Sequence record: NZ_LC532224.1
Strand: one strand, 5' to 3'
Origin: a plasmid
Length of the DNA stretch: 64,000 nucleotides
The notes under the pieces were generated by a model. That model had not been told where the DNA came from, ran no database searches, and saw only the letters and a list, made by a program, of their open reading frames with translations. The position numbers were made by a program, and so were the translations under genes. Within the stretch, counting starts at the first letter, position 1. Each line of letters starts with the position of its first letter. Of this stretch, positions 4,836 to 59,764 are shown piece after piece.

Positions 4836-5229
4836 TTGGGGTCACCTATATATAGTAAGAAGGAAGAAACAAATTTTTGTTTCAACACGAAGGCAAAGCC
4901 TGTCATTCATCTCCCGTAAGCTATGAACCGCCTGATTTATACTATCTGGCATTAGAAGTACGCAACAAAAATAGCCCCAGGAGGAGCTAAATTAGTTACG
5001 GTTTGGTAAATTCAGATTGCCTTTTGCAGGCATGGGAAGTGCACCAGCGACAAAGGTGACATTTTGCCGGTGGTGTCTTACAGCTTGTTTAAGCTGGCCG
5101 CTTTTCACGGCTAAATCAACGCTTAACGCGAAAGTAACTTTAAGCAAAGTTACTCAAATTTGGGAGCTGATATTTAAGCTCATTGTTTTTATACTATAGC
5201 TTTAAGCATAAGTAAATGCCCATATCGAA

Positions 5230-7014
5230 TTATTCTGTATAAAGTGGAGAAATTCGAATATTAGCTGCTTCTTTTATCTTTTCTTCACTGCATTCTCTTA
5301 AAAAGAAAGAAGGATCACCATACCACATTACAAAAAGTTGCTTTTCTGCACGCGTAAATCCAACATAAAGCAAACGTCTTTCTTCTTCTATTGCCTCCTC
5401 CCCAACTGATCTTTTACTTGGTATCTGATCCGCATTACAACTCATTATTATTACTTTATTCCACTCAAGACCCTTTGAACCATGCAAGGTTGATAGGACT
5501 ACTTTCTCTGGGCTGTATTCCTCGTCCTTCTTCCTAGGGCCTAATGACATTGCAGCAGCACGATTTATCATATTCATCCAACCAGTCTTTTCTGCCCACT
5601 GTTTACAAGTGTCTAAAGCAATTTTTGTTAAGGTTGCTGTACCTTTATTACTCCTCATCTTGATTGACGACGATTCCATCCATTTCGTAAGGTTGGCGAA
5701 ACGTTTTGCTATCTCAACTTTATCAGAACTTTCCTGGGTAAAGCGCACGAAGTTTGAATGTAATGTTTTTGTTTCGAGAGAACTGTCCTCCGGGATGGCA
5801 AGGTCGCCAAAAGTAACTTTTCTTCCTCTCATACTCAATGCCACTTCATCCAAAACTGATTCCTGTTCTCCAAACAATGCCAATACTCTCTTCATTAAGC
5901 GAGGATCATTTGATTGTCGGAAAAAGGCCATAAGGCTTAACACATCGCTTGTTTCTTTTTCATCCCAGAATGATTTACCTCCGTAACGAATTACTGGCTG
6001 TTCGATCAAACTTTCTAGCTCATCCAAGTGAGCATTATTGCGGCTTAGAATTGCCCATCCATGTGGATCCTGATTTATAAGGCTTAAAATACCCTGTATC
6101 TGTTCCTCCATATCTACATATGAACGAAAAGTGACCTTTCCCCCTCCCTTTTTTGCCGAGCGTAACTCTTTGGCATAACGGTAAACATTCTTTCCTATCA
6201 GTGCTCCGGCCACCTCTAAAATTTCAGGTTCACACCTAAAGCATGTGTTTAAGTAAAATATGTTAGGTCTGAAGTGTTTTTCAAACTGTTGAAATATTTT
6301 GACTCCTCCTGAGGATCTGAAGGAGTAGATGGCCTGATCATCGTCTCCAACTATACTCGTATAGACTCCAGCTCTTGTATGCAATGCTATCCATGAGAAT
6401 TGTATAGAGTCAGTATCCTGAACTTCGTCTACTATCAAATGTGTCAAATCTAACGTGCGCATTTTTCCCGAATGCATTTGACCGACAACAAATTTTGAAA
6501 GAGCATTGAGGTCCGCCACATGGTCTTTCTGGCATAACGCCTGATAGGTATTAAACAAATGGATCTGTTGTCTGTTATGCCGAACTGAAATCACATCCGT
6601 ATCCATTTCTCTGCCGATAGCATCAATAACGAATTCAGCTTCAGCAAACTTCATCGTTACACCGGATTCTTTCAAAGCCCGGTGAATGACAGATCTCTGT
6701 GCTGGCCCTATCAACATCTTTCCCGGCCAGCGAATCATGTCCAGTTGCTTCTTAACGAGTCCGTGAAAAGTATCCACCAGCACCCGGTCAAGATCCTTCT
6801 TGCTCAATCGCTTTTGTAACTTTGCTGCAAGTGCGTTTGTTGCAGCGCGAGTAAAGGTCACCATCCCGATTCTTGCATATGGATACTTTTTGAGAATCGA
6901 TATAACCGCTTCTATCATGGTGAACGATTTGCCTGATCCAGGCGCTGCTATCACCATATTGTTTGCGCTAGCATTCTCGATAACAGGTCTTTGCTCTTCT
7001 GTTGGCTTACCCAT
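5230..7014 (-). CDS. UvrD/Rep-family superfamily-1 DNA helicase
   Basis: Motif I AAPGSGKS, Ia TFTRAA, II LIVDEVQDTD, and C-terminal VGFTRA (motif VI-like). Length 594 aa. Confidence 0.8.
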   Translation of the reverse strand: MGKPTEEQRPVIENASANNMVIAAPGSGKSFTMIEAVISILKKYPYARIGMVTFTRAATNALAAKLQKRLSKKDLDRVLVDTFHGLVKKQLDMIRWPGKMLIGPAQRSVIHRALKESGVTMKFAEAEFVIDAIGREMDTDVISVRHNRQQIHLFNTYQALCQKDHVADLNALSKFVVGQMHSGKMRTLDLTHLIVDEVQDTDSIQFSWIALHTRAGVYTSIVGDDDQAIYSFRSSGGVKIFQQFEKHFRPNIFYLNTCFRCEPEILEVAGALIGKNVYRYAKELRSAKKGGGKVTFRSYVDMEEQIQGILSLINQDPHGWAILSRNNAHLDELESLIEQPVIRYGGKSFWDEKETSDVLSLMAFFRQSNDPRLMKRVLALFGEQESVLDEVALSMRGRKVTFGDLAIPEDSSLETKTLHSNFVRFTQESSDKVEIAKRFANLTKWMESSSIKMRSNKGTATLTKIALDTCKQWAEKTGWMNMINRAAAMSLGPRKKDEEYSPEKVVLSTLHGSKGLEWNKVIIMSCNADQIPSKRSVGEEAIEEERRLLYVGFTRAEKQLFVMWYGDPSFFLRECSEEKIKEAANIRISPLYTE

Positions 7015-7193
7015 TTCAACCTCATTACTTCGTTTTAATAATTATACATTTTTATAAAAGCGCTTTTCTTGTGTACTGCTGGTTCTACTGGAAATCACTT
7101 TTTTTCCTTTTTTATGCAATCAGGTTGTTTGTGAAACGCGTGACTATGGAATAATGGTTCCATCTCCAAAAGACATTACAAAAAGGGCTTTAA

Positions 7194-8066
7194 ATGAAAC
7201 TTTTACGTTTAGTATCTCTGGTCTCTTCTGTCGTCATTGGTTTTTCCCTATCGGGTTGTGCCGGTGACACCGGCACTACGCCAGGCACCGCTCTGAATGC
7301 GTACAGTCACGGCCAGTACTGGCATGCTAATGCAAATGATTCTGTCGCCAAGAATGCCTATTCGTTTGCTGGTTTCGACGTTAATTTTAAGGAGCAAGAG
7401 GTTACTCCTGGAGGGGATGCCGACAACTTTCTTTCTAAGTATCTCATCAATAGTTCGATGGGCTACGTAACAGGCGGTCTAAAAGGTTTTGGGATCATGA
7501 GCCTCAGCTCTTTGTACAGTTCTTCTGACGCCGAATACATCCAGGTCAATCAATACCTAGTGTTCGTCCCCAATCCAAAAAAATTGCCTTACAATGATGA
7601 AAGTTTGGTACGTGAGGGAGCTAAGTATGTTTTTGAGCATACAAAAGCAACTCAGGCCTCATTTGGATACAACCCTGAAAAACAGAAAGCAGCTCTGGCC
7701 ACATGTAAAATTGATATGGCAGTCGTCAATAAATGGAGTACCTGTGATCTGCCCTCTAAGCCTGATGCTGATGTTTTCCCTACAGATTCAATGTACAGCT
7801 TTCAGGCGATTCGCCCCGCAACAGGAACCGAAATTCCTGAGCTAAACCTTCCCGCTGGTGATTACGCTGTAATTCGTTATGTGTTCATCCCATTTAAAGG
7901 AAACGAAACAAGCGCTGATTTTTCGGGTATCATTTTCCGTTCTGATAGCCCAAATACAACAACTCCAGGGGGTGTTGCAGCCTCCATCAACGGAAAAGAT
8001 TATTACCTCTTTACCGGTGAATACGGTAAAAAAGGCTTCCCAGAAAAAACATTGAAAGCCAAGTAA
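7194..8066 (+). CDS. lipoprotein of unknown function
   Basis: Signal peptide with lipobox LSGC|AG. Convergent with trhN and separated from it by a bidirectional terminator. Confidence 0.6.
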   Translation: MKLLRLVSLVSSVVIGFSLSGCAGDTGTTPGTALNAYSHGQYWHANANDSVAKNAYSFAGFDVNFKEQEVTPGGDADNFLSKYLINSSMGYVTGGLKGFGIMSLSSLYSSSDAEYIQVNQYLVFVPNPKKLPYNDESLVREGAKYVFEHTKATQASFGYNPEKQKAALATCKIDMAVVNKWSTCDLPSKPDADVFPTDSMYSFQAIRPATGTEIPELNLPAGDYAVIRYVFIPFKGNETSADFSGIIFRSDSPNTTTPGGVAASINGKDYYLFTGEYGKKGFPEKTLKAK

Positions 8067-8070
8067 TTAA

Positions 8071-8095
8071 AAAAGGGGCCTAACGGCCCCTTCTT
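8071..8095. terminator. bidirectional rho-independent terminator between the lipoprotein gene and trhN
   Basis: GGGGCC-TAAC-GGCCCC hairpin flanked by A-run and T-run. Confidence 0.6.
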
Positions 8096-11000: not shown

Positions 11001-11283
11001 CGGCTTTACCCACGTATTTCTCGGTGATCTTCCCACTGACATTCTCGCCTGAATCCGCATTCTTGTACTTCTCAACAATGTCCTGAGCACTGGTTGTCGC
11101 ATTGCGATTTGCGTTAGGATTAGCAAGATTAAAGTTACTTTCGAGCTGGTCAAATATAGCGTCTGCCGCATAAATACGAGGAGTCATTACCATATTTATG
11201 AGAGAGATATAAAAAGCCCAACTCATAGTATTGGCAATCATTGATGCAATAATAGTTGAAGCTATCGTTTTTCTAAGTTTCAT
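8095..11283 (-). CDS. trhN: TraN-like mating-pair-stabilisation protein (long H-type, TrhN-like)
   Basis: 1062-aa ORF with an N-terminal signal/TM segment and an extremely Cys-rich C-terminal half. It sits directly downstream of the TraU homologue, matching the F-like order traW-traU-traN. Confidence 0.7.
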   Translation of the reverse strand: MKLRKTIASTIIASMIANTMSWAFYISLINMVMTPRIYAADAIFDQLESNFNLANPNANRNATTSAQDIVEKYKNADSGENVSGKITEKYVGKAESANLNLGKYGAGNSNESVMKNAASDGKSIGSAVQLPSMSGGTINSNYTKEGAKLLSRDANGNIGISSNPNTTPGTKTNTGEIFSSEQKHSDIKFNAADRYGDEDGFVNDIKNRKSQLFDAQSYDGVAYRTLVNANKDNPASSIKPNDPMFTAGRNEITNAVAGTGNWLQNCNVETSKKTVTTHYPDYKEFYCNSPKQDNFSSCTITRDFSVPVYISGGNGDMSMCGDNCVRIWFGRRDDNYWSDGVYDNELTLKFHPDAKLASAKIVNAEWDDHMRVTLDGTQIFAHIDGAYRESDYPAPKGSWELKKSWKLDKVYDVTDKVRKSVYEEPDREVTMASRVWVGGKGEGYFEVELTFENMKLEDKHVQEPAGCYDAVQAPNTFCRFDRFKDMDVGTKRLPESVLSLAKPLYEGDKGFLTWKTNLEGYFCDPLAKDKICSYDASGKIMKDANGKDLCYNYEEIKSMPDACSAYKNDAACVLDKQTCAEGWFDEGTNSCYMYEQKYTCDRGKDVVREVESSTNACVGMIPCSGGTCETGPKEENNDFGKVAAYSNMVQYMQGEAKCEDPNDANSCSVFEGKPEWCGRSVGFVNGLAKTDCCEAPQGTAGALEGIMLAGSMIRNTNWTRVNAQLIKWTGGDTGTWASMSNAVGEWTASAGKTVGQMWNNVTSSLTSVYENVAGNLSRAVGSSATSGGAGGAGQLAQETMSSFGIGQLKQMAMKKAYELLPDTVRDFVFKNVATTGGEVVFSAAVQNFMLALNVIGWIYTAYQVTKMLLEMLVACDQKEMEASIHKNQKSCFTLDTERCVKYLNVGFTKKCVKKATDMCCYNSMLSRVIMQQAYPQLGIDPVASNCVGLSIKQIQQLDFDKIDLTEWINDAVQVGEVPDQYSKFSEESIVENLPFQNENYQLPSERTKEAMGGEENMIKARQENAQAIKEENVDCSYLPRPAICEVGSTTLDPVTGKQLPKY

Positions 11284-11301
11284 TATTTTTACCCTTAGAA
11301 A

Positions 11302-12363
11302 TCAAGCGCCTGGTATATATCTGACGCAACAGTCATTGTAACGCCACAACATATAGACATAATTATCATTGCCTATTTTTTTGCGCCCACCTTTAAGGGT
11401 TGACCAGTCATGTACCGAATCACCAAGACGATGACAGCAATCCGGCCCTTTCGCCTCAGGAGTTGGGAAAAGCATTGAAAGCCGATACTGGGAACGAGGT
11501 GTAAAGTATTCCCACGTTTTCTCACACATTGCGTCTGCTCCCATCGTTCGCATCAGCATTCCCTGGCGATGTAGTTTAGTCAGAAGACGCTGGGTTATCA
11601 GTGAACTCGTCCTTACAGCGTCATCATTTGCGTAAATGTGGCCGGTTAATGGATAAAGGTTGCCATCGCATCCGGCACAAAAGTATGCAGCGAGATTATC
11701 CTTTCCTGCTGTTACTGCTACACAGTCAGCAGCGCACACCATTGAGGCAATTGGGTTTGCAAAAACTACTGCCTCTGGATTCAGGACGAGTGTAAGCAGA
11801 TCACTTTCCCACATAGGGTCCACTTCGCTTATATAGGTCAGGCTGGCATCTATATAGGGTTCAGCAGTGCACTCGCCAATAATCAGTAATTTGAGCATTG
11901 TCATGATTGGGAACTCCCAAAGATGAACATCGTAAAATCCGGCTTCAGTTGCTGTCATTGGCTGATTTGTGTTGCTTTTACCAATATCAAACTGCGATTT
12001 TTGAAGCATCGTGCCTTCAAGAAAGGGGCTGCACCAGGGGCTCTTTACAACTTCAACAATCTTCACCGGCTGAAAGAAGCTCAATTGCCAACCTATTTCC
12101 GGTACGCCGTTCTGATCTGTGCAGTAGCAACCCGGACGTGAAGGAGCAGCGCCTTCTGGAGCTGCCCCTATGCCCATTATCCTCATGGGAAAAATGCAGC
12201 TCCAACAGATATTCTTAATCAAGCCCTGCCACACTCCAGCTGACTGACACATAGCCCCAGGGACTCCAGCATCTGCTGCCATAGCCATACCCGGTATAGA
12301 AAGCGAAAGCATAACTGCTACAATGAACTCTAAAAGTAACTTTTTGAATTTTTTCACCATCAT
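11302..12363 (-). CDS. trhU: TraU-like pilus assembly protein (TrhU)
   Basis: Conserved TraU blocks ICWSCIFP, LNPEAVxFANPIA and KLHRQGM. The likely start is MMVKKFKK (signal peptide) rather than the longer track ORF. Confidence 0.85.
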   Translation of the reverse strand: MMVKKFKKLLLEFIVAVMLSLSIPGMAMAADAGVPGAMCQSAGVWQGLIKNICWSCIFPMRIMGIGAAPEGAAPSRPGCYCTDQNGVPEIGWQLSFFQPVKIVEVVKSPWCSPFLEGTMLQKSQFDIGKSNTNQPMTATEAGFYDVHLWEFPIMTMLKLLIIGECTAEPYIDASLTYISEVDPMWESDLLTLVLNPEAVVFANPIASMVCAADCVAVTAGKDNLAAYFCAGCDGNLYPLTGHIYANDDAVRTSSLITQRLLTKLHRQGMLMRTMGADAMCEKTWEYFTPRSQYRLSMLFPTPEAKGPDCCHRLGDSVHDWSTLKGGRKKIGNDNYVYMLWRYNDCCVRYIPGA

Positions 12364-14512: not shown

Positions 14513-14744
14513 ATTTTTCTCACTGGCACTGAAGAATATTTTTACTAGGCAGATGCACCTCTATCCAAGTAACTATTATCCATGTTTTTCAACGCTCGGA
14601 AGTCTGCAAACTAACCTAATATTCACCTATAAGAATGTTAATTCCTCAGCATGTATACGCAGCTTTGTTAGCGGCCATGAAAGATGCCTTTGGAGCAAAG
14701 TTACTTTCCGACATTAATTTTTCAAAGGTCCAATTATTGGGTAT

Positions 14745-14775: not shown

Positions 14776-14789
14776 TATTTAAAAATTAA

Positions 14790-17700
14790 CTACTCACTGC
14801 TTGGTATTGATACAGTGTTTTCAGACTTACTTGCCTCTTCAGCCGGTCCGAAAACTGTCACGTGCTGTGTTGCAAAGTCTCCACTATCATCATAAGCAAT
14901 TACTTTTATGTCCTGCTTACCACGGTTAAGGTTTTTAGAAAGTGTTGCCGTACTACCGAAAACGTTCCTTAATTCGCCGTTGATGAACCATTCATATCTA
15001 ACCATTTTTCCATCAGTATCATCACATTTATTGGTAAAGCTCCAGCTTAGGTTGGTTTCCGTGTAGCTCAATGTACAATTAGGCACTGCGTTTTTAACGA
15101 CATCAAACTCAACAGATGCTGAACCTCTCTGTCCAAGTTTACTAACAACATCAATTGTAATCTCGTATTTCTTTTCTTTTAAACCCGAGATCAGTTGAGC
15201 CCAATAATTTTTGCCGCTGGGTATTACTTCACCGTTCACCTTGTATGTGACCGTATCTATCGAGTCCGCCGAATGAGATAGCTTGATGTTTGACCTTAAG
15301 GTTACATCGAGTGGAGCTCTCATATATTTGTTAGAGAACTTGGGTGTCATCTCAACGTTCATTGGCGTTTGTTCATCGACAACAAAGGTATTTTCGATAC
15401 GCTGTTCATTGTTTCGGTTATCTTTGAAAACAACCATCAATGTATATTTGCCAGGATTTTCAATTGTAAATTCTTTGGTGTCACCTTCATCTTTAGTGAT
15501 TACCAGATTCTCTTTGTCGTAGATCCATTCACGGGAATAAGTAACACCAGGATAGTCTCCATCCTTAATACCGCTCAACGCAACGCGTAGGGTGGTCGGT
15601 GCCATGTCGTATTTAAGTTTGGAGCTTATTTTCATCTCGGGAAATTTATAAACCCACGATTTGACAGAAACTCTACGGGTAGAAACCGTATTCTCCTTAT
15701 TGTCCGCTAACCATGCACTGTATTCAAAAGCAGCATATCCCTGTTTATCCAACATTTGCTCAGTAAGGGTAACAGACAGTGAAGAGCCCTTAAATGTCTG
15801 GCCATCCGGTGTTTTCCATTCTTCAACTACGTTATTACCATTCTGGTACTTACTGTTAGGGTTCGTGAACTTACCTTCCAAAGTAACTTTTTGACCAACC
15901 TCTACCTTTGAAACCCCCGTTACCGAGACAGAAAGGCGCTTGGGTTTTGCGGCTGCCAACCGAGCAGACGTTTCCTTCCATGAAGACTCCTCTGCCAGTT
16001 CATCGGAATCAAGGTAACGCATCCGGGCATAAATCGTAGACGGTAGGGTATCAGCTGAAGCCACAGTGTAAGTTGTATCTCCCTGCACCCAGTTGACTTT
16101 ATCCTCTGACCAGAGAACCTCAGCGGTGCCTGCTGGTATAGGTTCATCGTTATCAAGCAGGGTTACAGGTATATCTGAGCCCTGAAGAATGTCTGTAACA
16201 TCTATACTGAGCTTAGGCTGCTTGTAGGTAACTACCGTTAAGGCATCTGTGTAGGAAATCTTGGATGTGAATTTATTAGTCATTTTTGCCCTATAAAGCC
16301 ACTTTCCTACTTCTGTCTTTTTGATACTTACACTTCTCTTTCCGGTCATGTCGGAAAGCATGGTCCAGGTTTGACCATTATCAGAGGACTGCTGCCATTC
16401 GGTGGGGGCGAGTGCATCAGAGTTAGCCGTACTGGCAGATTTGAAGCTTACCAGAGTACTAAGTGGGATCCTTCCGATAATAAGGCTTTTCGACAGGTTA
16501 CCCTCCAGTTCCTCACCTTTATAGATTCGAATGCCTACAGCACTGGTCTCACGTTTCATTTCAAAATCAGAGAATGGCGATCTGACCTTAGCCACACCAA
16601 CCAGACGCATATTACCCAGATCCATATTTTCAATTTTAATCTTGGTTTCGACAATGCCCGCATCATTGACCGGCAATGCTTCAGTCAGCGCAGTTCTTTC
16701 GTATGTAGTTTTATAACGGCCTGTTTCTGGATCTTTGCCGTATACACTTTTTTGAGAGTATATCGTGACGTCCCATTCTCCCATTGTTTTACGGTCAAAT
16801 GCACTTTTACGTGTGGAGTTGTTATAACGCCCCACTGTTACCTTTAAGGGCACTTCAAGAGATGTGGCTGTTTTTTTGTCATCCACTTCCATCGATGCTC
16901 GAATATTGAAATCAGGCACCGTATATACGTTGAGGGTGTCTGTAGTTCTTAATTCTGGATCCTTTGAGTATTCTACAGCTATGTCAAAGACGTTCTTTGT
17001 CCACAATGGTGCAGCAGCAACCTTGACCCTTTGTACAAAGGTCGTTGCATCGTTGTTTGAGGAACGATTTTTAAATGACGTTTTGACAGCCTCAGAGCCG
17101 TTTTGAGAGACGATCATCGTAACGTCAGCTGGTACCACCTTCGCTAATATTCGAGCGGCCTCCCCCCCGGTCGTATAAGCCAGAGCAGTGTTCGGATTGA
17201 TGCCTGCTATGACTTTATTCTTTTTGTAAGAGATGATCGGGTTGTATGGTAATTGTGTGGTCAGAGTACGGCGATTCCTTGCGGAAACCGCTTTAGAGCC
17301 CTTCCCGTTAATCATATAGACTTGATAGTCGAGCAGATTCTCACCTGTTTTATTAAAGAATCCAGTTAGACCCGGGGTACGTCCTTTAAAATAGAACTCC
17401 AACCCATCAGGGACATTGTTCCACTGAGGGTAGCATGCTGTAACATCTGATTTTTCCCCATACCAGGCGAGGTAAGCATTCGCATTTTCCTCTGTGGTAA
17501 ACAGAGTGCATTTATCACCAGCTGTTTGACTAAGCAGGTCCGTATACTGACGTACGCGCGAGTAAAGAGTTACGTTTTTTTCCAGATTCTTAAGAGTGAA
17601 TCCAGTAGGTTGATAAGTGAACACGGTACTGAAATTTACGTTTTTTCCATAAAGGTTTTCAGCCACCACAGTAATCTCGTGATCCGAATTAACTGCTAAA

Positions 17701-19189: not shown

Positions 19190-20532
<1,343 letters not shown>

Positions 20533-32794: not shown

Positions 32795-32839
32795 CGGCCA
32801 TGACCGGCATGGCCGTACTCATCAAATGTGAAAGTAACT

Positions 32840-34367: not shown

Positions 34368-34426
34368 AAGCAGACGGCGGGAAGAGAATGTTCAAAAGTG
34401 ACTTTTGGACACGCACATTAACGTGG

Positions 34427-35281: not shown

Positions 35282-35299
35282 CTCTTACAGTCGGAAAAG

Positions 35300-36049
35300 T
35301 TACTTTTGCGCAGCGCCCATTTGGGTCACCAGGTTTTCCGGGCTCAGCCACCCCGTAAATAACTGCGGTTTGCCGCTTAGTGTCACCATGGTAGGAGTAC
35401 CTTGCAGCGGGATTGTTGAGGCCACCTGGAAATGCGATTTGATAATGTTTAAGCAAGCCTCATCAGGACGTCCTTCCGGGATAGTTGAAACCGGATTCAT
35501 CGCTGCATCCAGAGCTTCGTTTGGCTTTGCTGAACACCAGATTTTGGCCATGTTCCCGGCTACTACCGAGTTCAGTCCTGCACGTGGGAATGCAAGAAAC
35601 TTAATCGAAATACCGGCATCAAGATAAGACTTCAGATCATGATGCAGTTTTTGGCAGTATCCACAGGTTATATCGGTAAAGATAGCAAGCCGGTATTTTT
35701 CGTTTGGTGATTTGTAGTCGATGGATTTTGTTTTGGATGCGAATTCCCGGACGCCCATTAAAATGGCCTGCTCAGTGGTGTTTACCACATCTTTACCTTT
35801 CACGTGGAATAAGCTTCCGGTAAAAATGTAATCTCCGTCTTTGCTCACGTAACTTACCCCCTCCCTGGAAATCACCGTAAAAATATCTTTTACTGGCGAG
35901 GGTTCGACGTGCTCGATTGAAAGCCCAATGGCTTTGAGCTTATCCCGGGCTGCATCTGGCAGTACCATTGTATTAACCGGCTCGGCATTCATCGTGAAGG
36001 CGGTACTTAATGAAAGAAGTAATACCGATGCCTTAATAATTTTTTTCAT
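35300..36049 (-). CDS. dsbC: DsbC-like periplasmic thiol:disulfide isomerase
   Basis: Signal peptide, dimerisation-like N-terminus, and a thioredoxin domain with the DsbC-type CGYC active site. Confidence 0.75.
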   Translation of the reverse strand: MKKIIKASVLLLSLSTAFTMNAEPVNTMVLPDAARDKLKAIGLSIEHVEPSPVKDIFTVISREGVSYVSKDGDYIFTGSLFHVKGKDVVNTTEQAILMGVREFASKTKSIDYKSPNEKYRLAIFTDITCGYCQKLHHDLKSYLDAGISIKFLAFPRAGLNSVVAGNMAKIWCSAKPNEALDAAMNPVSTIPEGRPDEACLNIIKSHFQVASTIPLQGTPTMVTLSGKPQLFTGWLSPENLVTQMGAAQK

Positions 36050-37376: not shown

Positions 37377-37499
37377 TGAACAAAGTAACTTTCCTTTTAC
37401 CCTGTCACTGCTGATCTCGTACGCCCATCCACTTTAGGATTGATTGTTTTATACCATACGCAATAATGTCTCATATGAATTCGACAAGAAAGGGACATT

Positions 37500-46201: not shown

Positions 46202-46714
46202 TTAATCTAATTCTTCTTGAGAATACCTCTCTATGGCTGAAGCAGTTGAAGATAATCTGCAACGTGGACAGTGAGCATCATTTGTCACTGGCACAATGTA
46301 TGGGCGTTTACATTTTTCGCAGGCACCTAGTTCTTCAATTTCTTTCATAGAAGTAAGGATTTCTATTATTTTATTAACTTCCGGTGCGCATACAAAGTAT
46401 CCCAGATTATGAAGGACACTCATTATTCGGTTGAAGTCAATTTGCCGAAAACTCGCTTCCGGATTTATTGGATCAAAACCAAAATAGTTAACTGCGACAT
46501 CAATAACAGCAGAAAAGGCTCGGCGGTTATCTGTGCGTTTGCTCCAGCCCCGGATACCTTTTTTGAGTTTTGTTTTTGCACCAGGCTCAAAATCGATATT
46601 TTCAGCAACATGATTACCGTACAAAATTCGTATTGTATTTTTATTTGCCCCAAGCGACATAGTTCTTGCTGCTCGCAATAGAGCATTAGCTTTTGTTTGA
46701 TCGACCTTTGCCAT
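46202..46714 (-). CDS. hypothetical protein with C-terminal zinc-ribbon (CxxC...CxxC). This may be a regulator of the trhF operon (TrhY-position).
   Basis: 170-aa ORF with CEKCKRP...CPRCR. It immediately follows the 266-aa ORF and sits upstream of the AT-rich trhF promoter region. Confidence 0.45.
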   Translation of the reverse strand: MAKVDQTKANALLRAARTMSLGANKNTIRILYGNHVAENIDFEPGAKTKLKKGIRGWSKRTDNRRAFSAVIDVAVNYFGFDPINPEASFRQIDFNRIMSVLHNLGYFVCAPEVNKIIEILTSMKEIEELGACEKCKRPYIVPVTNDAHCPRCRLSSTASAIERYSQEELD

Positions 46715-46715: not shown

Positions 46716-47516
46716 TCAATAATCCTTTAACATAACTTTATTTGTTAAAGTGTTGAACACATCCTGACGGTGACTGGTGAACATAGTGTCATAACGTAAT
46801 AGTTCCATCAAATCATCACTAACTTTTCCTAACCGGATGTCAGCAGACAATTCATAAGCCCAGGCAAAAACTTTCGTTTTAAGTGAAACACTCTCTTCAA
46901 TATGCCCTTGTGAGAAAGCAATTGTACGTGGGAAAAGAACGACATCGTTAATTGTTTTTAACGATGAATAACCAATGTCTTTAATAGCATCAGCTGTAGT
47001 TGGTTTTAAACCAAAGAAAATACTTACAAACTCTGGTGCGAGCATTGAGATAAAGAACACCTGCATAAAGTAGTCATTCTGTATATCAACACATTTAGAA
47101 CGCAACTCATGAATCTTCTTGGGATTATAGATATCCACTGTACCATTCAGAAAAGTCACTTTTTCACCGGCATCGTAAATACCATAGTCAATATCATTTG
47201 TATCATATTCACGAATTACATTGGAATCACCGTCCAAGACCGCAGAAAAAAACCTCTCCCATGTAATTTCCTTTCCGAGTGTACGCGGAACCAAAAAACT
47301 ACCTGGACGTGTTTCCACTTCAAAAGCTAAATCAGCGGCTGTACTAAATCCTTTCCCAAATAGGCGACGCTGGAGAAGAGGAGTCCCAGTTTGATATGCA
47401 GAAGATCCATGCACAGGCAATAACATTAAAAATGCACGGTAACTACGAATAAGCGAAATCTCAGTGCGGAAAAGTTTACCGAGTAAGCTACGAGTTAAAT
47501 TATCAGATTCTGACAT
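46716..47516 (-). CDS. hypothetical protein. This may be a transfer regulator (TrhR-position).
   Basis: 266-aa ORF divergent from the relaxase operon across the oriT-like region. Confidence 0.45.
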   Translation of the reverse strand: MSESDNLTRSLLGKLFRTEISLIRSYRAFLMLLPVHGSSAYQTGTPLLQRRLFGKGFSTAADLAFEVETRPGSFLVPRTLGKEITWERFFSAVLDGDSNVIREYDTNDIDYGIYDAGEKVTFLNGTVDIYNPKKIHELRSKCVDIQNDYFMQVFFISMLAPEFVSIFFGLKPTTADAIKDIGYSSLKTINDVVLFPRTIAFSQGHIEESVSLKTKVFAWAYELSADIRLGKVSDDLMELLRYDTMFTSHRQDVFNTLTNKVMLKDY

Positions 47517-47844
47517 GTGCTGATTGTCCTTGCGCCATTACAATTGTTCAAATCTTCAACATGGATTTTTTGTTAGGTGTTCGGTAGGGTGAAAAGTAAC
47601 TTTTAGTATTTTCTTAAGGCTTGAATAAGCCTTAAATCTATCCCTTCAACCACACCGCTTACTTGTAACACTTTTTAACCAAACTAACCAGAATTTTATC
47701 AAAAATTCCTGCGCATGCTAACGAAATGTGAAGCGATTAAAAAAAAACCTAAATCCAGCCCCTCCCAACGTTGGATTAGAATAACGACGTCTTTCACTGA
47801 CCGTCATAAACTGACATTTTTACTTTTCATCAACCTCATGCTTA

Positions 47845-48008: not shown

Positions 48009-48275
48009 GATATATGTATAACTTTAATAGAGCAATGCACATTATCAAAAGCAATAATCCACAATGGTCATTCTGTCAAAAGTAACTTTAGGGGGTAGCG
48101 ATGGAAGTGAGGCTAAACTCGCTGTTACTGTTTCTGAAGGCCCCTCCCGAATGGGGGAAACAGCGAGTGCATTACATCTGTTCAATTCCCTCATCAAAGA
48201 GCATTCAAAAATCTTCTGTTCGTGAAAAAAAACGGAAATTTCCTCCGGTATAGTAATTTCACATCAGGAGGCGTC

Positions 48276-49498: not shown

Positions 49499-52400
49499 AT
49501 GATGATGAATTTCAGGGCGCTGTATTTATGTATTAAACGGATTTTGGGGATATTCTCATCTCAGGAGAATGATGCAACCTCTGTAATGATTGAGGATATA
49601 TCAAGCCTCTCTCCTTTTGCGCAGATTCTAGGAGATCAGAAGTACACTGTTCCTGATCATCCAAATCCAGAAGTCCTGAAATTCATCGAGTATCCAACTC
49701 GTCCGACGGGCATACAGACATTTAATGAACAGTCAATCCTGTCTCTGTATCGGGAAAAGCTGCACTCAATTTCAATGATGTTAGCTATCAGCGATAGCGA
49801 CATCAGGGACGATGCATATACATTTACTAATTTAGTTTTAAAGCCCTTGGTTGAATATGTTCGCTGGATACATCTTTTGCCAGCTTCCGAAAATCATCAT
49901 CATAATGGTATTGGTGGGTTACTTTCTCACAGCCTGGAAGTGGCCATACTCTCTTTAAAAAATGCGCATCACTCAGAACTGAGACCAATCGGATATCAAG
50001 ATGAAGAAGTAGTCCGTAGAAAAGTATATCTCTATGCTGCGTTTATCTGTGGTTTAGTCCATGATGCCGGAAAGGTTTACGATCTCGACATTGTAAGCCT
50101 GAATTTAGCTAGTCCGATCATTTGGACGCCAAGCTCACAAAGTCTTCTTGACTGGGCACGTGAAAATGACGTGGTTGAATACGAAATCCACTGGCGAAAG
50201 CGTATTCATAATCAACATAATATCTGGTCCAGCGTTTTCCTTGAGCGAATCCTAAACCCGGTATGTCTTGCATTTTTGGATCGGGTAAATAAAGAACGTG
50301 TTTATTCAAAAATGATCACCGCCCTAAACGTTTATACTGATGGGAATGACTTTTTGTCTAAATGCGTGAGGACCGCTGATTTCTATTCTACTGGTACAGA
50401 CCTTAATGTTTTACGTGACCCTATCATGGGTCTGCGTTCTAATGATGCAGCAGCAAGGGCCATTAGTACCATCAAGCACAACTTTACCAGTATCAATATC
50501 AACAATTACAATGCTAAGCCTATGCACATCATTATCGTAAATGGTGAGGTATACCTTAACGAGAACGCATTCCTTGATTTTGTTCTCAATGATTTCGAAT
50601 TACATAAATATAACTTCCCTCAGGGAGAGGCTGGTAAGACCGTATTGGTAGAATCCCTAGTTCAACGTGGTTACGTCGAGCCCTATGATGATGAGCGTGT
50701 CGTTCACTACTTCATTCCGGGTATCTATTCGGAAAACGAAATATCAAACATCTTTAGAAATGGGATAGGGAAACTAGAATTCTATAACCTTCTTAAGCTA
50801 AGGTGGATTGGTTTAATCTTTGATTCCTATAAAATCCCTGACTCAGTGCCGGGTCTTTTTAGCGTTAATGCCAATAAAGACTTTATTTACATTGACGAGC
50901 AAAAAACAGTTACTGAATACAGAAGACCAGTGCCCGGTCGGGACGTTATAACTAAAATTACTGATACTGTTGAGACGGCTGTTCTTAAGGTTAATGATTT
51001 AGGCCGCTCCTCTGCCTCTATTGATGTTGATATACATTCTAAGAAAAATGAAGGCTCATCCGACGATTTTGAGAAGAAAGCCGAAAGTGATAATGAAATT
51101 GATAATGACACGCAGATAGTTAAATCTGAGGGTGAGGAAGCAGCTGATCCTGTCATTCCTGATATAGAAGAAAGTGAAGATGAATCGGCAAAGGACACGG
51201 AATCCCATGTCCTGGTCAACCAACTTCATGAACTCCTTTTAAGCGCTCCACTTTCCAATGACTATATAGTGTGTGTTGATGCTGTCCCCTACCTCAACAT
51301 AGATACCACTATGGCATTGCTGCCGGGATTAGATGAAAAAGCATTCAGTGAAGAGCCCTATTTCCAACTGACATTCAGAGAAGGCTCTCTCGATGGAATG
51401 TGGATAGTAAGGGACATTGACGATCTGCGTTTAGTCCAGCTCGGCGATAACTGCGCCGGGTTCCAGCTCACCTATCATGAGCCAAGAAGGCCAACAACTT
51501 TAAAGTCACTTTTCAATACTTCTATGTATCAGGCATTAGTGATTAATGATGAGTCTTCTGTTGAAAACTCTGCCCCACGTCCAAAGCAAACGCTTGAGCT
51601 GCCTCCCCCACGTGTAAATGCAGTCGAAGAACATTCTGGCGACGTGGAATATCATGGAACCGATAGTGCATCCGCGACTGGTCCGCTGAAAACTGAGGCT
51701 GTGGAATATGAACATTATCAACATCTTTTTGAGAAAGAAGATGAAGAGCATGAGATCATTGATTATACCGATTTCTCACAGCTTAGTGTTTCTCGGCCAG
51801 AAGTCGGTAGTTGTGCAACAAGCTCTTCGGTCCATAATGAAAAGCTTCTCTCCGAGCCGTCAGAATTACCAGAACTTAACCGAGAACAGAACGCTGATCC
51901 CCAGGGTACGAATGAACGCTCTATGGATGTTTCTGTAGGACAAGAAAACTCAGAACCAGATACTGAGGGTAACTGCCCACCACCAGCTGAAGTTGTGTAT
52001 TCCCAGACCGAAGCAGCCGCAACCAGTGTGATGGCAAGTGAAGAGCCCGCCTTACCTCCTGTACTTGAAGAATCAAATGGAGAGCATGCGCCCACAGACG
52101 CTAAGGGGCATCATCTTTCGCCAGCACTGGCCAGACTGTTCGCCCCAACAGCACCGGTAGAAAAACAAAATCCCAAGCGCAACCGGAATAAATCATCGGA
52201 CAAAGCAGAAGTACAAAAACCAGCATCACCTGTTTCTGGTCACAATCTGAACAGTAAAGTCTTTGCATCTACTGAATCAGACCAAAATGGTGAATTCTCG
52301 CTTATAAGCGAAGGTGACGTTACAGAGCTTGAATTTGTAGAAATTGCGTTAGTACTGCATCAAATTCTGTCCAAAATGGAGGTGGCGTTTAAAAGAAAGC

Positions 52401-52651: not shown

Positions 52652-54735
52652 TGTCAGATTCGAAGAGGACTAACCTCCATGCACAAGAGAATTTTTATCG
52701 GCCTATTCTTGAGTATCGTAGTGCCTCAATACTTTTGATTTGTTCGGTTTCTATGCTTTATATGGGACTTTCTTCAGACGGACTGGACATCGCCCCAATA
52801 GTTCTGTTCACCTCAATATTGCTTTTTTTGCTGTGCCTTTATCGTTGCAAAACAGCAGCGCCATTTTTGATGGCTCATTGGCGTGTATTCAAGCGACATT
52901 TCATGTTCGTTAGTCTTGATTCACTGCGTGTAATTAACAAAAGTAACTTTTTCTCCAATGAGCGAAAGTATCGTCAACTGGTTCAGGATTATCAAAATAA
53001 AAATAAGGATATACCCGAGCGAAAGTCCTATTTTTGTGATGGGTTTGAGTGGGGTCCGGAACATGCGGATCGGGCATATCAAATAGCTAACCTCTCCAGT
53101 GATAAACGTGAGATCGAGTTGCCATTCGTCTTCAACCCAATTAAGAGACATTTTGACGCAATGGCTCGTAAGATGGGCGGCAGCAATGCAATTTTTGCTG
53201 TGGAACGTAGGGAACCCATATTTGTAACTGAAGACAATTGGTTTGGTCATACTCTGATAACCGGAAACGTGGGTACCGGGAAAACGGTGCTACAGCGTTT
53301 ACTAAGCATTAGCATGCTTCATCTTGGTCATGTTGTTGTTGTCATAGATCCAAAGAACGATGCAGAGTGGCGAGAATCTCTAATGGAAGAGGCTAAGACC
53401 CTCGGTCTTCCTTTCTATAAATTTCATCCTGGCCAGCCAGCATCTTCGGTCTGTATTGATGTCTGCAACACCTATACTAATGTTTCTGACCTAACATCTC
53501 GTCTTTTGAGCTTGGTGACAGTTCCCGGTGAGGTTAACCCATTCGTTCAGTATGCCAAGGCTCTCGTTTCCAATGTGATTTCCGGGCTTTCTTACATAGA
53601 GAAAAAGCCTTCTATTTATCTGATTCACAAGAACATGAAAAGCCACATGTCTATTGTGAATCTTACAGTCAAGGTAATGGAGTCATGTTACGCGAGATAT
53701 TATGGTTACGATGTCTGGACCGAAAAAGTTAAGTACGTCGCTAACGATACCTTGCCGGTACGTTTCAAGCGTCTCGCTGAATGGTTTACGGCTCATTTCA
53801 TGAATTACGAGGGGTCCGAACAAATAGACTGGTTAGATACTGTTTCCCAGCTTATTGATTACTCAATGTCCGACCCAGAGCATATGGCTAAAATGACCGC
53901 AGGTATTATGCCTGTTTTCGATATGCTCATTGAAAAACCTTTAAATGAGCTTTTATCTCCTAACCCGAACTCAGTATCATCAAGAGAAATTGTAACAAGC
54001 GAAGGGATGTTCAGCACTGGCGGGGTGCTATACATTTCGCTTGATGGCCTTTCAAACCCCGATACAGCAGCTGCTATTTCTCAATTAATAATGTCAGATC
54101 TGACCTCCTGTGCCGGTAGTCGCTACAACGCTCAAGATGGTGATATGTCAGCTAATTCCAGGATAAGTATTTTTGTTGATGAGGCACACTCAGCCATTAA
54201 CAACCCTATGATTAACCTTCTGGCGCAGGGTCGTGCAGCGAAAATTGCACTGTTTATTTGCACCCAAACCATCTCCGACTTTATTGCTGCGGCAAGTGTT
54301 GAAACTGCCAATCGAATTACGGGGCTCTGCAACAATTATATAAGCTTGCGAGTCAACGATACTCCTACTCAGACGCTTGTTGTAGAGAACTTTGGTAAGA
54401 GTGCGATAAGCACAAATATGGTCACTTATACGACCGGTTCAGAAACATCTTTGCCGCATAATAACTTCTCAGGTTCAATCTCAGAAAGAAAGCAGACAAC
54501 TTTAGAAGAGAGTATTCCAAAGGATCTCTTGGGTCAGGTCCCTATGTTTCACATAGTTGCCAGGCTTCAAGATGGCAGGAAGGTTGTAGGCCAAATCCCT
54601 ATTGCTGTTGCTGAGAAACAAATGAAGCCAAACACAACTCTGTCGGAAATGCTTTTCAAGAAGGCCGGAAAAGTTACTTTGCGTCAAAATCTCGATATCA
54701 AAAATCTTAATAAATTTCTAAGGAAGTTGCATTGA
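52651..54735 (+). CDS. traG: type IV coupling protein (VirD4/TraD/TraG family)
   Basis: Two N-terminal TM helices. Walker A GNVGTGKT and Walker B-like IFVDEAH. 694 aa. Confidence 0.85.
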   Translation: MSDSKRTNLHAQENFYRPILEYRSASILLICSVSMLYMGLSSDGLDIAPIVLFTSILLFLLCLYRCKTAAPFLMAHWRVFKRHFMFVSLDSLRVINKSNFFSNERKYRQLVQDYQNKNKDIPERKSYFCDGFEWGPEHADRAYQIANLSSDKREIELPFVFNPIKRHFDAMARKMGGSNAIFAVERREPIFVTEDNWFGHTLITGNVGTGKTVLQRLLSISMLHLGHVVVVIDPKNDAEWRESLMEEAKTLGLPFYKFHPGQPASSVCIDVCNTYTNVSDLTSRLLSLVTVPGEVNPFVQYAKALVSNVISGLSYIEKKPSIYLIHKNMKSHMSIVNLTVKVMESCYARYYGYDVWTEKVKYVANDTLPVRFKRLAEWFTAHFMNYEGSEQIDWLDTVSQLIDYSMSDPEHMAKMTAGIMPVFDMLIEKPLNELLSPNPNSVSSREIVTSEGMFSTGGVLYISLDGLSNPDTAAAISQLIMSDLTSCAGSRYNAQDGDMSANSRISIFVDEAHSAINNPMINLLAQGRAAKIALFICTQTISDFIAAASVETANRITGLCNNYISLRVNDTPTQTLVVENFGKSAISTNMVTYTTGSETSLPHNNFSGSISERKQTTLEESIPKDLLGQVPMFHIVARLQDGRKVVGQIPIAVAEKQMKPNTTLSEMLFKKAGKVTLRQNLDIKNLNKFLRKLH

Positions 54736-58451: not shown

Positions 58452-58490
58452 CAAAAGGCCCCATCGGTAAATTGTTGGGGCTTTTTCTTT
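58452..58490 (+). terminator. terminator of the relaxase/coupling-protein operon
   Basis: GGCCCCA...TGGGGC hairpin followed by CTTTTTCTTT. Confidence 0.5.
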
Positions 58491-58704
58491 GCGTAGTTCT
58501 GATACGGTTTATCCTGTGGAGCATTATGGCCACCAGCCAGCTGGTGACTGGCCAACGCTTTGTATGACGTAGCCTACTCAGGGCAGGCTATTTTAGAGGG
58601 ACCGATTTTTATCCGGGCTAATTTAGAAAGAGATAATTTGAACTTAGGCGGGCTGACCACCAGCAGAGAGGTAAATCACTAGCCGGTGATATTGACAGAA
58701 GTCG

Positions 58705-59067
58705 TCAGGGGTTTAACGCCGGAATATTTTGCCAGGCCTCCTGCAAGGTCTGCAAGACTTCTACAAGTGATAGTGACGGCCACAGGACTGTTTCCGTCAT
58801 TATCACTCCAGGTGGCTCGCACTCTACTGGTACCAGAATTAAAACAACACGAGTTCCTTTTACCTGGTAGGCAAGGTTTACTGCCGGTTGGCGGTAGGAG
58901 GCCAGTACACCCTCACCATATTGAGCAGGGTTACTTGCCCAGTTCCGCACCATTGCATACACCTGAGGCATATACCGACTATCCAGATCCCCTTTGGGCC
59001 GTCTGAACGGCACGATTTCTTCTGAGCGGTAGGTGGTCGTTGTTGTATTGGTTGTCATCTTTGTCAC
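58705..59067 (-). CDS. hypothetical protein (Thr-rich N-terminus)
   Basis: 120-aa ORF. Confidence 0.35.
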   Translation of the reverse strand: MTKMTTNTTTTTYRSEEIVPFRRPKGDLDSRYMPQVYAMVRNWASNPAQYGEGVLASYRQPAVNLAYQVKGTRVVLILVPVECEPPGVIMTETVLWPSLSLVEVLQTLQEAWQNIPALNP

Positions 59068-59123
59068 CTCCCCTGTTCGTCCATTTAGAGTTTTAAGCTG
59101 CTTTACACATCACACTCAACTGA

Positions 59124-59408
59124 TTATTTAAGCTGGTCATCGTCTCTGGCCAGCATAGCCCAACCATTCGCCTGGTTTTCGCGGGAGTAAGGATTCATTT
59201 CAAAATAACTATCTACCGCGTCGCTGTCCGCAACAGAACTGTTGTTAGCTCTCTTTGAACCCTGAACCACTACAGCATCAACCTCTGCGGCTTTCCCGTT
59301 GCGCTGTACCAGGATTTTAACCGTATTGGGCTTACGTCTTGCGAGCAGTTTGTTGGCGATAAAAAGCACAACAATCCAGGCCAAAAGCACGTATAAAAAT
59401 GTATTCAT
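59124..59408 (-). CDS. small single-pass membrane protein
   Basis: 94-aa ORF with an N-terminal TM helix. Confidence 0.4.
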   Translation of the reverse strand: MNTFLYVLLAWIVVLFIANKLLARRKPNTVKILVQRNGKAAEVDAVVVQGSKRANNSSVADSDAVDSYFEMNPYSRENQANGWAMLARDDDQLK

Positions 59409-59764
59409 AATGCCCTCCTTTGTATGTGATTATTATACCTGCTTCCATTGCAGGCCAAACAGGTTCGGTGCATGAAAAATAGACTTCTCTCCGGCGTATA
59501 GCAATCTACTTACTGATCTGTTTTCGTATCAAACTGTATGGCATAACCGAGGGGCGTACGTGGTGAGTCAGAAAGTTACTTTTCCGTAATAGTTAATTTC
59601 AGATCCTTCTTCCAGTTACGCTTCAGTATAAAACCGATACCCTCTAATTCAGCATCCTTCACGTTTAATACGCTTCACTTTAAGGCAGGGCTTTTCGGTT
59701 GAAATGAATTCTTTTTCCGGTTGCTGGACATGGGTTTCATCCTGATAGTTAAAGTTGCAGGCTA

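Follow-up and report, generated by a model that had tools for sequence, protein, structure and literature searches.

Enrichment of a palindrome in IncHI2 plasmid DNA

Which protein, if any, reads the short palindrome AAAGTnACTTT that recurs along the backbone of IncHI plasmids, and to what end? The window analyzed here, a stretch of 64,000 nucleotides (sequence record NZ_LC532224.1), is part of an IncHI2 conjugative plasmid and covers Tra1 and part of Tra2. The first-pass annotation of this stretch had listed 13 perfect copies of AAAGTWACTTT and likened them to the dispersed KorB operator network of IncP plasmids. From its sequence properties, the motif is predicted to be a genuine, strongly selected protein-binding site that is common to the whole plasmid family. 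Its copies quite plausibly, though far from certainly, serve as dispersed loading/operator sites of a ParB/KorB-like protein, the R0104 type (named after R0104 of the IncHI1 plasmid R27), which is the putative binder.

The 11-bp core AAAGTnACTTT lies within a 7-1-7 palindrome, gAAAAGT-n-ACTTTTc, in which the center base is free. Position counts over all sites of two complete plasmids reveal a weak extension to the 15-bp gAAAAGTnACTTTTc and no conservation past +/-7 bp. Because conservation ends there, the sites are not fragments of a longer repeat, and confinement to a single repeated element, which had been raised as a possibility, does not apply. The window contains 15 perfect AAAGTWACTTT sites and four with C or G at the center, i.e., 19 AAAGTNACTTT sites. 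All 13 copies listed earlier are present, while two perfect sites (5810-5820 and 11131-11141) had been overlooked; the G-center variant at 34395 and the near-match at 3300 (AATGTTACTTT) were likewise found, along with three more C-center sites (18124, 47152 and 51502).

Dinucleotide shuffles give an expectation of 0.05 W-center sites, with a maximum of 2 in 100 shuffles as against the 15 observed, and Markov models of orders 1-5 give 0.14-0.47 N-center sites as against 19, in agreement with the previous rough estimate that chance would supply far fewer than one. The sites are enriched more than 70-fold. The window has 19 cores without mismatch where 0.21 are expected, 10 with one mismatch where 4.8 are expected and 57 with two mismatches where 51 are expected; this spectrum restricts the enrichment to perfect cores, in an all-or-none manner. 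Half of the one-mismatch copies in the window (those at 1681, 3540, 5334, 16295 and 23126; 5 of 10) carry a symmetric transition, T>C at position 5 or A>G at the mirror position 7, and the same bias is seen over the complete IncHI2 plasmid R478 (12 of 32). These recurrent AAAGCnACTTT and AAAGTnGCTTT variants are unconserved in R27 and were therefore left out of the site counts; they look like decayed or chance sites.

Nine of the 19 window sites are intergenic, three are no farther than about 60 nt from a gene end and seven are deep inside genes, viz., trhI, trhN, rsp (two), trhR, mobH/traI and traG. The earlier description of the sites as mostly intergenic or at gene boundaries fits 11 of the 13 then listed and does not extend to the seven deep intragenic ones in the full set. 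Their restriction to backbone DNA stands: no perfect site occurs in 18134-32831, which comprises IS1, an IS1-flanked chromosomal segment and some backbone, or in the terminal IS903B (63212-64000).

Distribution over complete plasmids

Complete plasmids hold about 50 sites each. R478 (IncHI2, 274.8 kb) has 47 W-center and 7 C/G-center sites, 54 altogether, where 0.5-0.7 are expected, and R27 (IncHI1, 180.5 kb) has 42 and 4, respectively, 46 altogether, where 0.3-0.4 are expected; the count over whole replicons against background, which had been suggested as a check, is hence far in excess. In both plasmids the motif is by far the most frequent 5-n-5 palindrome, the runners-up having 8 and 4 copies. 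The 173 kb backbone of R478 harbors 51 of the sites as against 3 in 102 kb of resistance/transposon islands (p = 7e-8). The density is about 5-fold higher in intergenic DNA (0.59 per kb vs 0.11-0.17 per kb; p = 1.6e-9 for R478 and 2.9e-5 for R27), and 24-25 sites per plasmid (44-52%) lie within annotated genes, in all three reading frames.

Most sites of R478 and R27 are outside the transfer regions, and replication, maintenance, methylase, Ig-like-protein and unknown-function genes are also among those with sites. Many intergenic sites are equidistant upstream of orthologous genes in the two plasmids. For example, a site is located 82 bp (R478) and 81 bp (R27) upstream of trhR, 192 bp upstream of mobI/traH in both, 190 and 189 bp upstream of trhF/trhP, 95 bp upstream of htdT in both, 247 and 287 bp upstream of trhA, and 234 and 242 bp upstream of a cytosine methylase gene.

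Conservation, turnover and breadth of the motif

R478 and R27 could be aligned over 110 kb at 75% identity. At 22 of the 24 R478 sites within aligned DNA the perfect 10-bp core is kept in R27, although the +/-60-bp flanks are only 69% identical; the background is 5.9%, measured as the conserved share of random 10-of-11 windows taken no farther than 300 bp from a site. The conservation of the core extends to sites deep inside genes, such as those at nt 1199 of trhI, nt 965 and 3209 of rsp, nt 294 and 2024 of traG, nt 1104 of the VWA gene and nt about 500 of tus. Orthologous sites differ freely at the center base (A, T, G or C), so that the center is unconstrained and recognition is truly two-fold symmetric. 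Of 20 one-mismatch sites, 15 have diverged between the two plasmids and four have identical cores, two of these being in the shared Tn10. The perfect sites are under strong purifying selection at the level of DNA, also inside genes.

Turnover is seen in trhN, where the IncHI2 site is at nt 147 (11131 in the window; R27 reads AAAACAATTTT) and the IncHI1/R27 site is at nt 445 (R27 7708), which suggests that a site is selected for somewhere in the region and that its exact codon is not fixed. In R478, one of the R27 sites is decayed by a single base.

With 17 sites over 40.7 kb, the motif is also the top palindrome of a plasmid from Klebsiella that types as IncFIB/MOBH, though the TrhR of this plasmid is only 28% identical; a relative of this plasmid, pHN111RT-1, types as IncFIB/IncHI1B. 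It likewise ranks first in Leclercia pLec-476cz (17 sites in 40.8 kb), in contigs of Pseudocitrobacter, Buttiauxella and K. grimontii and in further metagenomic relatives. The motif is thus conserved across the IncHI superfamily. It is absent from a 12.5 kb region of an IncC plasmid that contains a weak ParB-like homolog, and from a distant metagenomic element (loci L026/L027) that encodes the distant ParB-like protein P0107 and whose sole repeated palindrome is a GC-rich terminator-like hairpin. These hairpins, AACCCGCnnnnGCGGGTT in 3-5 copies, are unrelated to the IncHI motif and are probably terminators or REP-like elements. Full-text and literature searches found no published description of the motif, though the original R27 and R478 sequence papers may mention it in passing; an IncHI comparative-genomics preprint mentions neither repeats nor palindromes nor ParB.

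The R0104-type gene and its upstream sites

Pfam domain scans, which covered 24 proteins, identified a ParB-type helix-turn-helix (HTH) in two paralogous backbone proteins, one of 394 aa and another of 385-387 aa. The 394-aa ParB-family protein is R0104 in R27, is encoded at 216013-217197 in R478, corresponds to WP_001272971 in IncHI2 and is labeled 'DNA-binding protein' in some records. Its gene lies 1.0-2.2 kb beyond the right end of the window in plasmids that share the IS903B junction found there (NZ_AP025916.1).

A perfect site is present 96-130 bp upstream of the R0104-type start in seven of the eight loci examined, most of which have further sites upstream. There are two upstream sites in R478, R27 and Buttiauxella, and pLec and Pseudocitrobacter have three at intervals of 117-118 bp. 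K. grimontii has five, K. pneumoniae pHN111RT-1 has six in a stretch of 750 bp, and the eighth locus, the outgroup L021, has a one-mismatch copy only, at about -100. No gene other than R0104 is preceded by two sites in R27 as well as in R478. Since the cluster is kept at about -100 before the ParB-type gene down to 35% identity, autoregulation is the most parsimonious reading.

The neighbors of R0104 are small hypothetical genes without a Pfam match, and no ParA- or KorA-like gene was found beside it by Pfam among the 93-aa and 131-aa downstream genes and eight hypothetical neighbors. In R27 microarrays the R0104 gene is expressed well and independently of temperature, with 2196 units measured at 25 C as against 2155 at 37 C. 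The deletion derivative R27 Del7 (90,001-96,150), which lacks R0104 and its upstream sites, could be obtained and had wild-type stability over seven subcultures (PMC4853401). Del1, which lacks R0042, the R27 representative of the shorter paralog, was also obtained, and stability was reduced by Del16 only (PMC4853401). As Del7 is viable and stable, R0104 is not essential for laboratory maintenance, and this speaks against its being a KorB-like controller of lethal genes or the main partition factor. No published description of the function of R0104, or of an IncHI KorB/ParB-like protein, was found in the searchable literature.

Sequence and predicted structure of R0104

R0104-type proteins comprise a ParB/sulfiredoxin-like N-domain, a ParB-type HTH, a disordered linker and a conserved C-terminal helical domain. 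The Pfam HTH_ParB match of R0104 exceeds the gathering score, and its HTH aligns with that of Caulobacter ParB (PDB identifiers 6s6h and 6t1f), the sequence similarity to solved ParBs being confined to the HTH. The AlphaFold model of R0104, built with 20 homologs, is confident at residues 15-255, disordered at 256-323 and helical at the C-terminus. A Foldseek search of this model against the PDB retrieved RK2 KorB (PDB identifier 8qa9) as the top match, with an E-value of 2.6e-8 and a TM-score of 0.66 on the target, followed by ParB-CTP complexes, Noc and Spo0J; the matches to KorB, ParB-CTP and Noc extend over about 230 residues.

Several elements are invariant in R0104-type proteins down to 35% identity, viz., FNTR (47-50), R-Q-G-x-C-R-x-R (97-104), a C-terminal block, and H184 and R186 of the putative recognition helix. 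The second of these, with its G-x-C-R-x-R-A patch, appears to resemble the GERRxRA arginine patch of ParB. An N-terminal S-L-R...E peptide is also invariant and could be a partner-interaction motif. In an exhaustive HMMER search, the full-length R0104-type proteins fell into only three clusters at 50% identity, and the other matches were about 230 ParB-like relatives of greater distance; the R0104-type protein belongs to a separate small clade.

A proposed KorB-like network

The proposal that the sites load or position an R0104-type protein is supported by the strict odd palindrome, the plasmid-wide and backbone-only spread of the sites, their purifying selection and their clustering before an orphan ParB-family gene with a KorB-like predicted fold. 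The analogy drawn earlier with the KorB network is supported in kind by the dispersed operator-like sites and a ParB/KorB-like gene; the binders suggested along with it, TrhY and TrhR, are not supported, and the sites are not a transfer regulon.

We propose that dimers of the R0104-type protein would recognize each palindrome via two HTH motifs and that the site cluster before the R0104-type gene would mediate autoregulation. About 50 further sites would form a plasmid-wide network, roughly half of them located 60-300 bp upstream of operon starts and the rest at gene ends or inside genes. The operon-start sites would take in the R, H, AC and trhP transfer promoters as well as parM, methylase and Ig-like-protein genes, and transcription could be modulated from the sites in the manner of KorB, which represses genes as a sliding clamp dependent on CTP, or of VirB, which likewise depends on CTP and counters silencing by H-NS. 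The part of R0104 as the binder, the nucleotide switch and the direction of the regulatory effect are points that we infer. A bolder version, which we put forward only tentatively and regard as rather doubtful, is that the R0104-type clamp is a plasmid-wide chromatin organizer that loads at about 50 palindromes, slides and balances H-NS/Hha silencing, being neither a partition protein nor a simple repressor. If true, this might tie the sites to thermosensitive conjugation and to the derepression that htdA mutants show across the plasmid, and the code would be common to IncHI1, IncHI2 and Klebsiella IncHI1B/FIB virulence-resistance plasmids, such that co-resident plasmids could cross-regulate.

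Several observations weigh against R0104 as the binder. The link between the protein and the sites is associative. The motif is invariant even though the R0104-type proteins of IncHI2 and of the Klebsiella lineage are just 35% identical; in the recognition helix of the protein no more than S/T-x-x-H-[LIV]-R is conserved; and the distant relative P0107, which has a similar helix, sits in an element devoid of the motif. All these plasmids also carry the R0042-type paralog, and since in two metagenomic lineages a site is present 43-130 bp upstream of the R0042-type gene, R0042 could be the binder or a second binder. Neither a KorA-like nor a ParA partner adjoins the R0104 gene in the Pfam scan of its neighbors, and Del7, missing R0104 together with its upstream sites, is viable and stable (PMC4853401). 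The idea that R0104 binds CTP comes only from a degenerate arginine patch and the modeled fold. DNA flanking the sites is barely AT-richer than background, its GC content being only 0-2.5 points lower, and therefore lends no special support to a link with H-NS. When the outgroup loci from the exhaustive HMMER search were compared for a switch of palindrome, the motif was either unchanged (L021-L023 and L025) or had no candidate site in its place (L026/L027); thus, no informative specificity switch was found among the diverged homologs, and a word-based search from the Klebsiella protein gave close relatives only.

Alternative binders and explanations

The sites could instead be operators of the transfer regulators TrhR/TrhY, possibly countered by HtdA, which we consider improbable. 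The products of 46716..47516 and 46202..46714, the binders put forward in the first-pass annotation, are TrhR and TrhY, respectively, transfer activators in which no ParB or HTH domain was detected. Sites do precede trhR (by 82 bp) and mobI/traH (by 192 bp), on either side of oriT, and they also occur before trhA, htdT and trhP, and mutation of htdA derepresses 139 of the 181 expressed R27 genes, most non-transfer genes among them (PMC7366339); on account of this plasmid-wide effect the TrhR/TrhY explanation keeps a small probability. TrhY could also bind DNA through its C-terminal CxxC...CxxC zinc ribbon; at the C-terminus of the protein (46202-46714, minus strand) the four cysteines are arranged as C-E-K-C, 16 aa and C-P-R-C, with a weak Pfam zinc-ribbon match (E = 0.017). 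Such a ribbon brings to mind the heteromeric master activators that related MOBH elements encode, in particular their FlhC/AcaC/SetC subunits. However, the F-operon promoter spacer (window 45611-46201; R27 110222-110834), which is the standard reporter for TrhR/TrhY/HtdA, has no site even with one mismatch allowed, and the htdA promoter region is siteless too. Pfam searches with TrhR, TrhY, HtdA and HtdF at E-values up to 10 gave nothing meaningful apart from the weak zinc ribbon of TrhY, and the AlphaFold model of TrhR is uninformative (pLDDT 37). Moreover, the motif is plasmid-wide and not confined to transfer genes, the sites cluster before the ParB-like gene and not before trhRY, and a perfect 7-1-7 palindrome with dozens of conserved intragenic sites would be unexpected for a heteromeric activator. 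The second orphan ParB-HTH paralog, R0042 (385-387 aa), is a distinctly unlikely binder, whether alone or with R0104. Its gene (R478 268858-270021; R27 45191-46348) is always divergent from a dam methylase gene and is itself followed by a DUF4942 gene. R0042 has the architecture of R0104, a Pfam HTH_ParB match and 32% identity to R0104 over the N-domain and HTH, occurs in all the plasmid lineages examined and has one of the highest expression levels of any gene in R27 (6132 units at 25 C), and in the two metagenomic lineages mentioned above the site is 43 or 130 bp upstream of its gene. In R27 and R478, though, the surroundings of the gene are free of sites to a distance of about 1.9 kb, the conserved multi-site cluster precedes R0104 and not R0042, and the putative recognition helix of R0042 varies by lineage (SPTTISS, SNTTIAA, SEQNIRS, SAVTVTN and QVSSIRQ) while the motif is invariant. 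R0042 is induced under conjugation-permissive conditions in R27.

That some other factor, a plasmid protein or a host protein of Enterobacterales, binds the sites and that the R0104-type gene is merely one of its targets is unlikely in our view, even though about two thirds of the IncHI backbone proteins are of unknown function (PMC4853401). The domain scan was limited to 24 proteins. Also, the GT-n-AC core resembles the operators of several regulator families. On the other hand, accessory DNA of the same plasmids and hosts is nearly free of the motif, the literature search found no host regulator or plasmid operator of matching sequence, and the conserved cluster at about -100 of the ParB-type gene is more parsimoniously explained by autoregulation. 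A dispersed parS-like centromere that serves to partition these 180-480-kb plasmids actively or to compact them, the ParB-like protein acting together with the Par1 ParA, would be in keeping with the predicted ParB fold of the candidate binder, palindromes as strictly conserved as parS, an invariant S-L-R...E peptide for possible contact with a partner, and the very large size and low copy number of the plasmids. We nevertheless hold it to be quite improbable, as the sites are spread over the whole backbone and not gathered near the par locus, the ParB-like gene has no adjacent ParA gene, and Par1 has its own P1-type ParB and a separate TAAGGGGGT-containing tandem array in the trhC-parA gap, which itself lacks the motif; besides, R27 Del7, without R0104, is as stable as the wild type (PMC4853401), though Par1 and Par2 may be redundant with R0104. 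The TAAGGGGGT arrays, with a longer unit of about CGATTAAGGGGGTTAAAT, fill the 3-4-kb non-coding trhC-parA gap (R478 12.5-15.0 kb and R27 25.6-27.7 kb; loci L003 and L004), with 8 copies at a period of about 249 bp in R478 and 18 copies at one of 52-54 bp in R27, TAAGGGGGT being the second most enriched word in R27; the array is probably the centromere of Par1 or an incompatibility determinant. Finally, it is very improbable that the motif is no protein-binding site at all but a hairpin of an RNA or a terminator, a target for restriction/modification or what is left of a small REP/MITE-like mobile repeat. One copy (5131) is within a longer hairpin and several sites directly follow stop codons; conversely, there is no conservation beyond +/-7 bp, 44-52% of the sites are intragenic and in all three frames, a 5-bp stem with a 1-nt loop is unable to fold, and both arms are strongly selected while the center base is free. 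We know of no methylase or restriction specificity that is a strict 11-15-bp palindrome. A plasmid Tus homolog was also considered as the binder, as Ter sites contain GTAAC, and was dropped on the reasoning that 50 symmetric sites would block forks both ways; Ter sites are asymmetric.

Comparison with known systems

The proposed network of R0104-type sites can be compared with several known systems. As in the KorB-OB system of the IncP-1 plasmid RK2, the protein is plasmid-encoded and of the ParB family, with KorB itself (PDB identifier 8qa9) as the best structural match of the R0104 model. The site is a perfectly conserved odd palindrome with a free or degenerate center. Its many dispersed copies are either close to promoters, 80-300 bp upstream, or distant and intragenic, with one or more at the promoter of the putative binder's own gene, and transfer, replication and maintenance functions are covered. 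In contrast, the RK2 operator TTTAGCSGCTAAA is unrelated to the IncHI site gAAAAGTnACTTTTc, there are about 50 IncHI sites as against 12 OB on a plasmid that is 3-8 times larger, and R0104 is an orphan gene without incC/ParA and without a recognizable KorA or TrbA partner nearby. Loss of korB is not known to be tolerated in RK2, whereas the R0104 region can be deleted. This was done in R27 (PMC4853401).

VirB of the Shigella virulence plasmid is similarly an orphan ParB-like protein without ParA on a large enterobacterial plasmid, with inverted repeats, virS, upstream of promoters. The virS repeats have a 7-1-7 geometry, like the IncHI site. VirB, however, is known to act at a handful of promoters as against about 50 IncHI sites, and the IncHI site flanks are not unusually AT-rich, nor is R0104 expression temperature-dependent. 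The R27-type host plasmid is itself a target of H-NS/Hha, with temperature-controlled gene expression (PMC7366339, PMC10770331). The IncHI network would work like KorB-OB or VirB-virS and yet belongs to neither, because site sequence, gene context and dispensability all differ.

ParB-parS, Noc-NBS, MatP-matS and SlmA-SBS also mark DNA for one protein with dozens of strict palindromes across a replicon or domain, in genes as well as between them, and ParB and Noc are among the top fold matches of the R0104 model. These systems serve chromosome organization or segregation and show no promoter enrichment, unlike the IncHI sites, which are 5-fold enriched in intergenic DNA and stand at conserved distances before operon starts. 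The TrhR/TrhY/HtdA circuit shares with the proposed network the plasmid-encoded control of the same transfer operons and, for htdA, plasmid-wide effects; no published operator was found for it.

IncHI1 and IncHI2 plasmids and those of the Klebsiella IncHI1B/FIB(Mar) type play a major part in carrying multidrug resistance (typhoid fever, mcr-9 and NDM) and hypervirulence hybrids, and the control of temperature-sensitive IncHI transfer is only partly understood. The network would offer an experimental handle on the global regulation, fitness cost and transfer of IncHI plasmids, and the motif would be a simple sequence signature for IncHI-superfamily backbone DNA in assemblies. If the proposal is true, this would be a global control network of IncHI-type plasmids, new to the literature as searched, and a third plasmid case of gene control by a ParB fold after KorB and VirB, on a much larger scale and with many intragenic sites.

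Individual sites in the window

Beginning in the Tra2 part, the site at 5131..5141 (AAAGTAACTTT) is intergenic, 94 bp past the trhI stop and 301 bp before the next gene, and its orthologous site is kept in R27. It forms the left arm of a 9-bp/4-nt hairpin, the second copy of which (5146-5156) has 2 mismatches; the hairpin AGTAACTTT-AAGC-AAAGTTACT described earlier is indeed present at 5133-5154. The site at 5810..5820 (AAAGTAACTTT) is deep in trhI, at nt 1199 of 1785, and occupies the identical codon position in R27 trhI, whereas that at 11131..11141 (AAAGTTACTTT), in trhN and 147 nt from its start, is unconserved in R27. The 5' end of trhU contains a site at 12333..12343 (AAAGTAACTTT), which is 19 nt away from the annotated start and shares its position with R27. 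The rsp-trhF(trhP) spacer has a site at 14697..14707 (AAAGTTACTTT), 88 bp past the rsp stop and 190 bp before trhF; in R27 the rsp-trhP spacer, with one motif site, shows promoter activity (PMC7366339). Within rsp, the position of the site at 15880..15890 (AAAGTAACTTT; nt 3209 of 4305) is kept in R27, and the C-center site at 18124..18134 (AAAGTCACTTT; nt 965) has an R27 ortholog with an A/T center.

On the far side of the accessory DNA, a site at 32831..32841 (AAAGTAACTTT), kept in R27, lies between the convergent 3' ends of umuC and dsbA, and the G-center site at 34395..34405 (AAAGTGACTTT) lies between two small convergent genes. The site at 35296..35306 (AAAGTTACTTT) overlaps the stop of a thioredoxin-fold (DsbC-like) gene, 26 bp before the next gene, and is kept in R27 with an altered center base. 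That at 37382..37392 (AAAGTAACTTT) is 11 bp past the stop of a HAD-domain gene and 113 bp upstream of an HNH gene, its positional counterpart in R27 being 7 bp from the end of the HAD gene. The 5' end of trhH contains a site at 44535..44545 (AAAGTAACTTT), which is 34 nt away from the start and is shared in position with R27 and with the Klebsiella relative (5' end of TraH). The C-center site at 47152..47162 (AAAGTCACTTT), in trhR at nt 359, has an R27 ortholog with an A/T center.

Two sites flank oriT, as described previously. The left one (47593..47603, AAAGTAACTTT) is 82 bp upstream of the trhR start, in the leader/promoter region of the R operon (81 bp upstream in R27), and the right one (48079..48089, AAAGTAACTTT) is 192 bp upstream of mobI (traH; H operon), as in R27. 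The oriT repeats (47860-47990) have arms GAAAAGTGACCCTATG that share GAAAAGTGAC with the motif, which agrees with the half-site noted before. This region contains at least three hairpin-type inverted repeats with arms GAAAAGTGACCCTATG / CATAGGGTCACTTTT, and the outer 10 nt of the arms (GAAAAGTGAC) equal one half-site, the center and 2 nt of the dispersed palindrome. The word GACCCTATG is nearly confined to the oriT repeats, with 5 of the 6 copies in the window and 5 of the 8 in R478.

The remaining sites begin with a C-center site at 51502..51512 (AAAGTCACTTT), deep in the mobH/traI relaxase gene. The coupling-protein gene traD/traG has one at 52940..52950 (AAAGTAACTTT), at nt 294, and another at 54670..54680 (AAAGTTACTTT), which precedes the traG stop by 61 nt and the next gene by 60 bp; both are kept in position in R27. 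The intergenic site at 59572..59582 (AAAGTTACTTT) precedes a small hypothetical gene on the minus strand (59124..59408) by 169 bp, and in R27 a site precedes the ortholog by the same 169 bp.

Layout of the window

In sequence comparison, long stretches of the window are 100% identical to many IncHI2A plasmids of Enterobacter, Salmonella and Klebsiella. The Tra2 part (1-19189) comprises trhI, trhN, trhU, trhW, trhF/trhP and rsp. It is followed by IS elements, the IS1-flanked chromosomal segment and some backbone (about 19.2-31 kb), by backbone with Tra1 (31-59.6 kb), which comprises umuDC, dsbA, trhG, trhH, trhX, trhY, trhR, oriT, mobI, mobH/traI and traG, and by the insertion of IS903B, an element of the IS5 family (63212-64000). 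Two identical IS1 copies bound the segment at about 26800-30820, with open reading frames (ORFs) at 26805-27308 and 30094-30597 and the same ORF pattern in both copies; in matching plasmids the segment, which is accessory DNA with zero motif sites, is annotated with a mechanosensitive channel, uspE and APH(3')-I. The IS903B copy at 63212-64000 splits a 233-aa hypothetical backbone gene of the WP_000237191 type, and its junction is common to a set of Japanese IncHI2 plasmids of Enterobacter hormaechei/cloacae (AP019386, AP0259xx). The transfer protein HtdK (R478 23801-24355) has a weak Pfam match to the Whirly single-stranded-DNA-binding fold (E = 1.2e-4; 22.4 bits vs a cut-off of 23), and its counterpart in the window is apparently the ORF at 19133-19780 on the minus strand.

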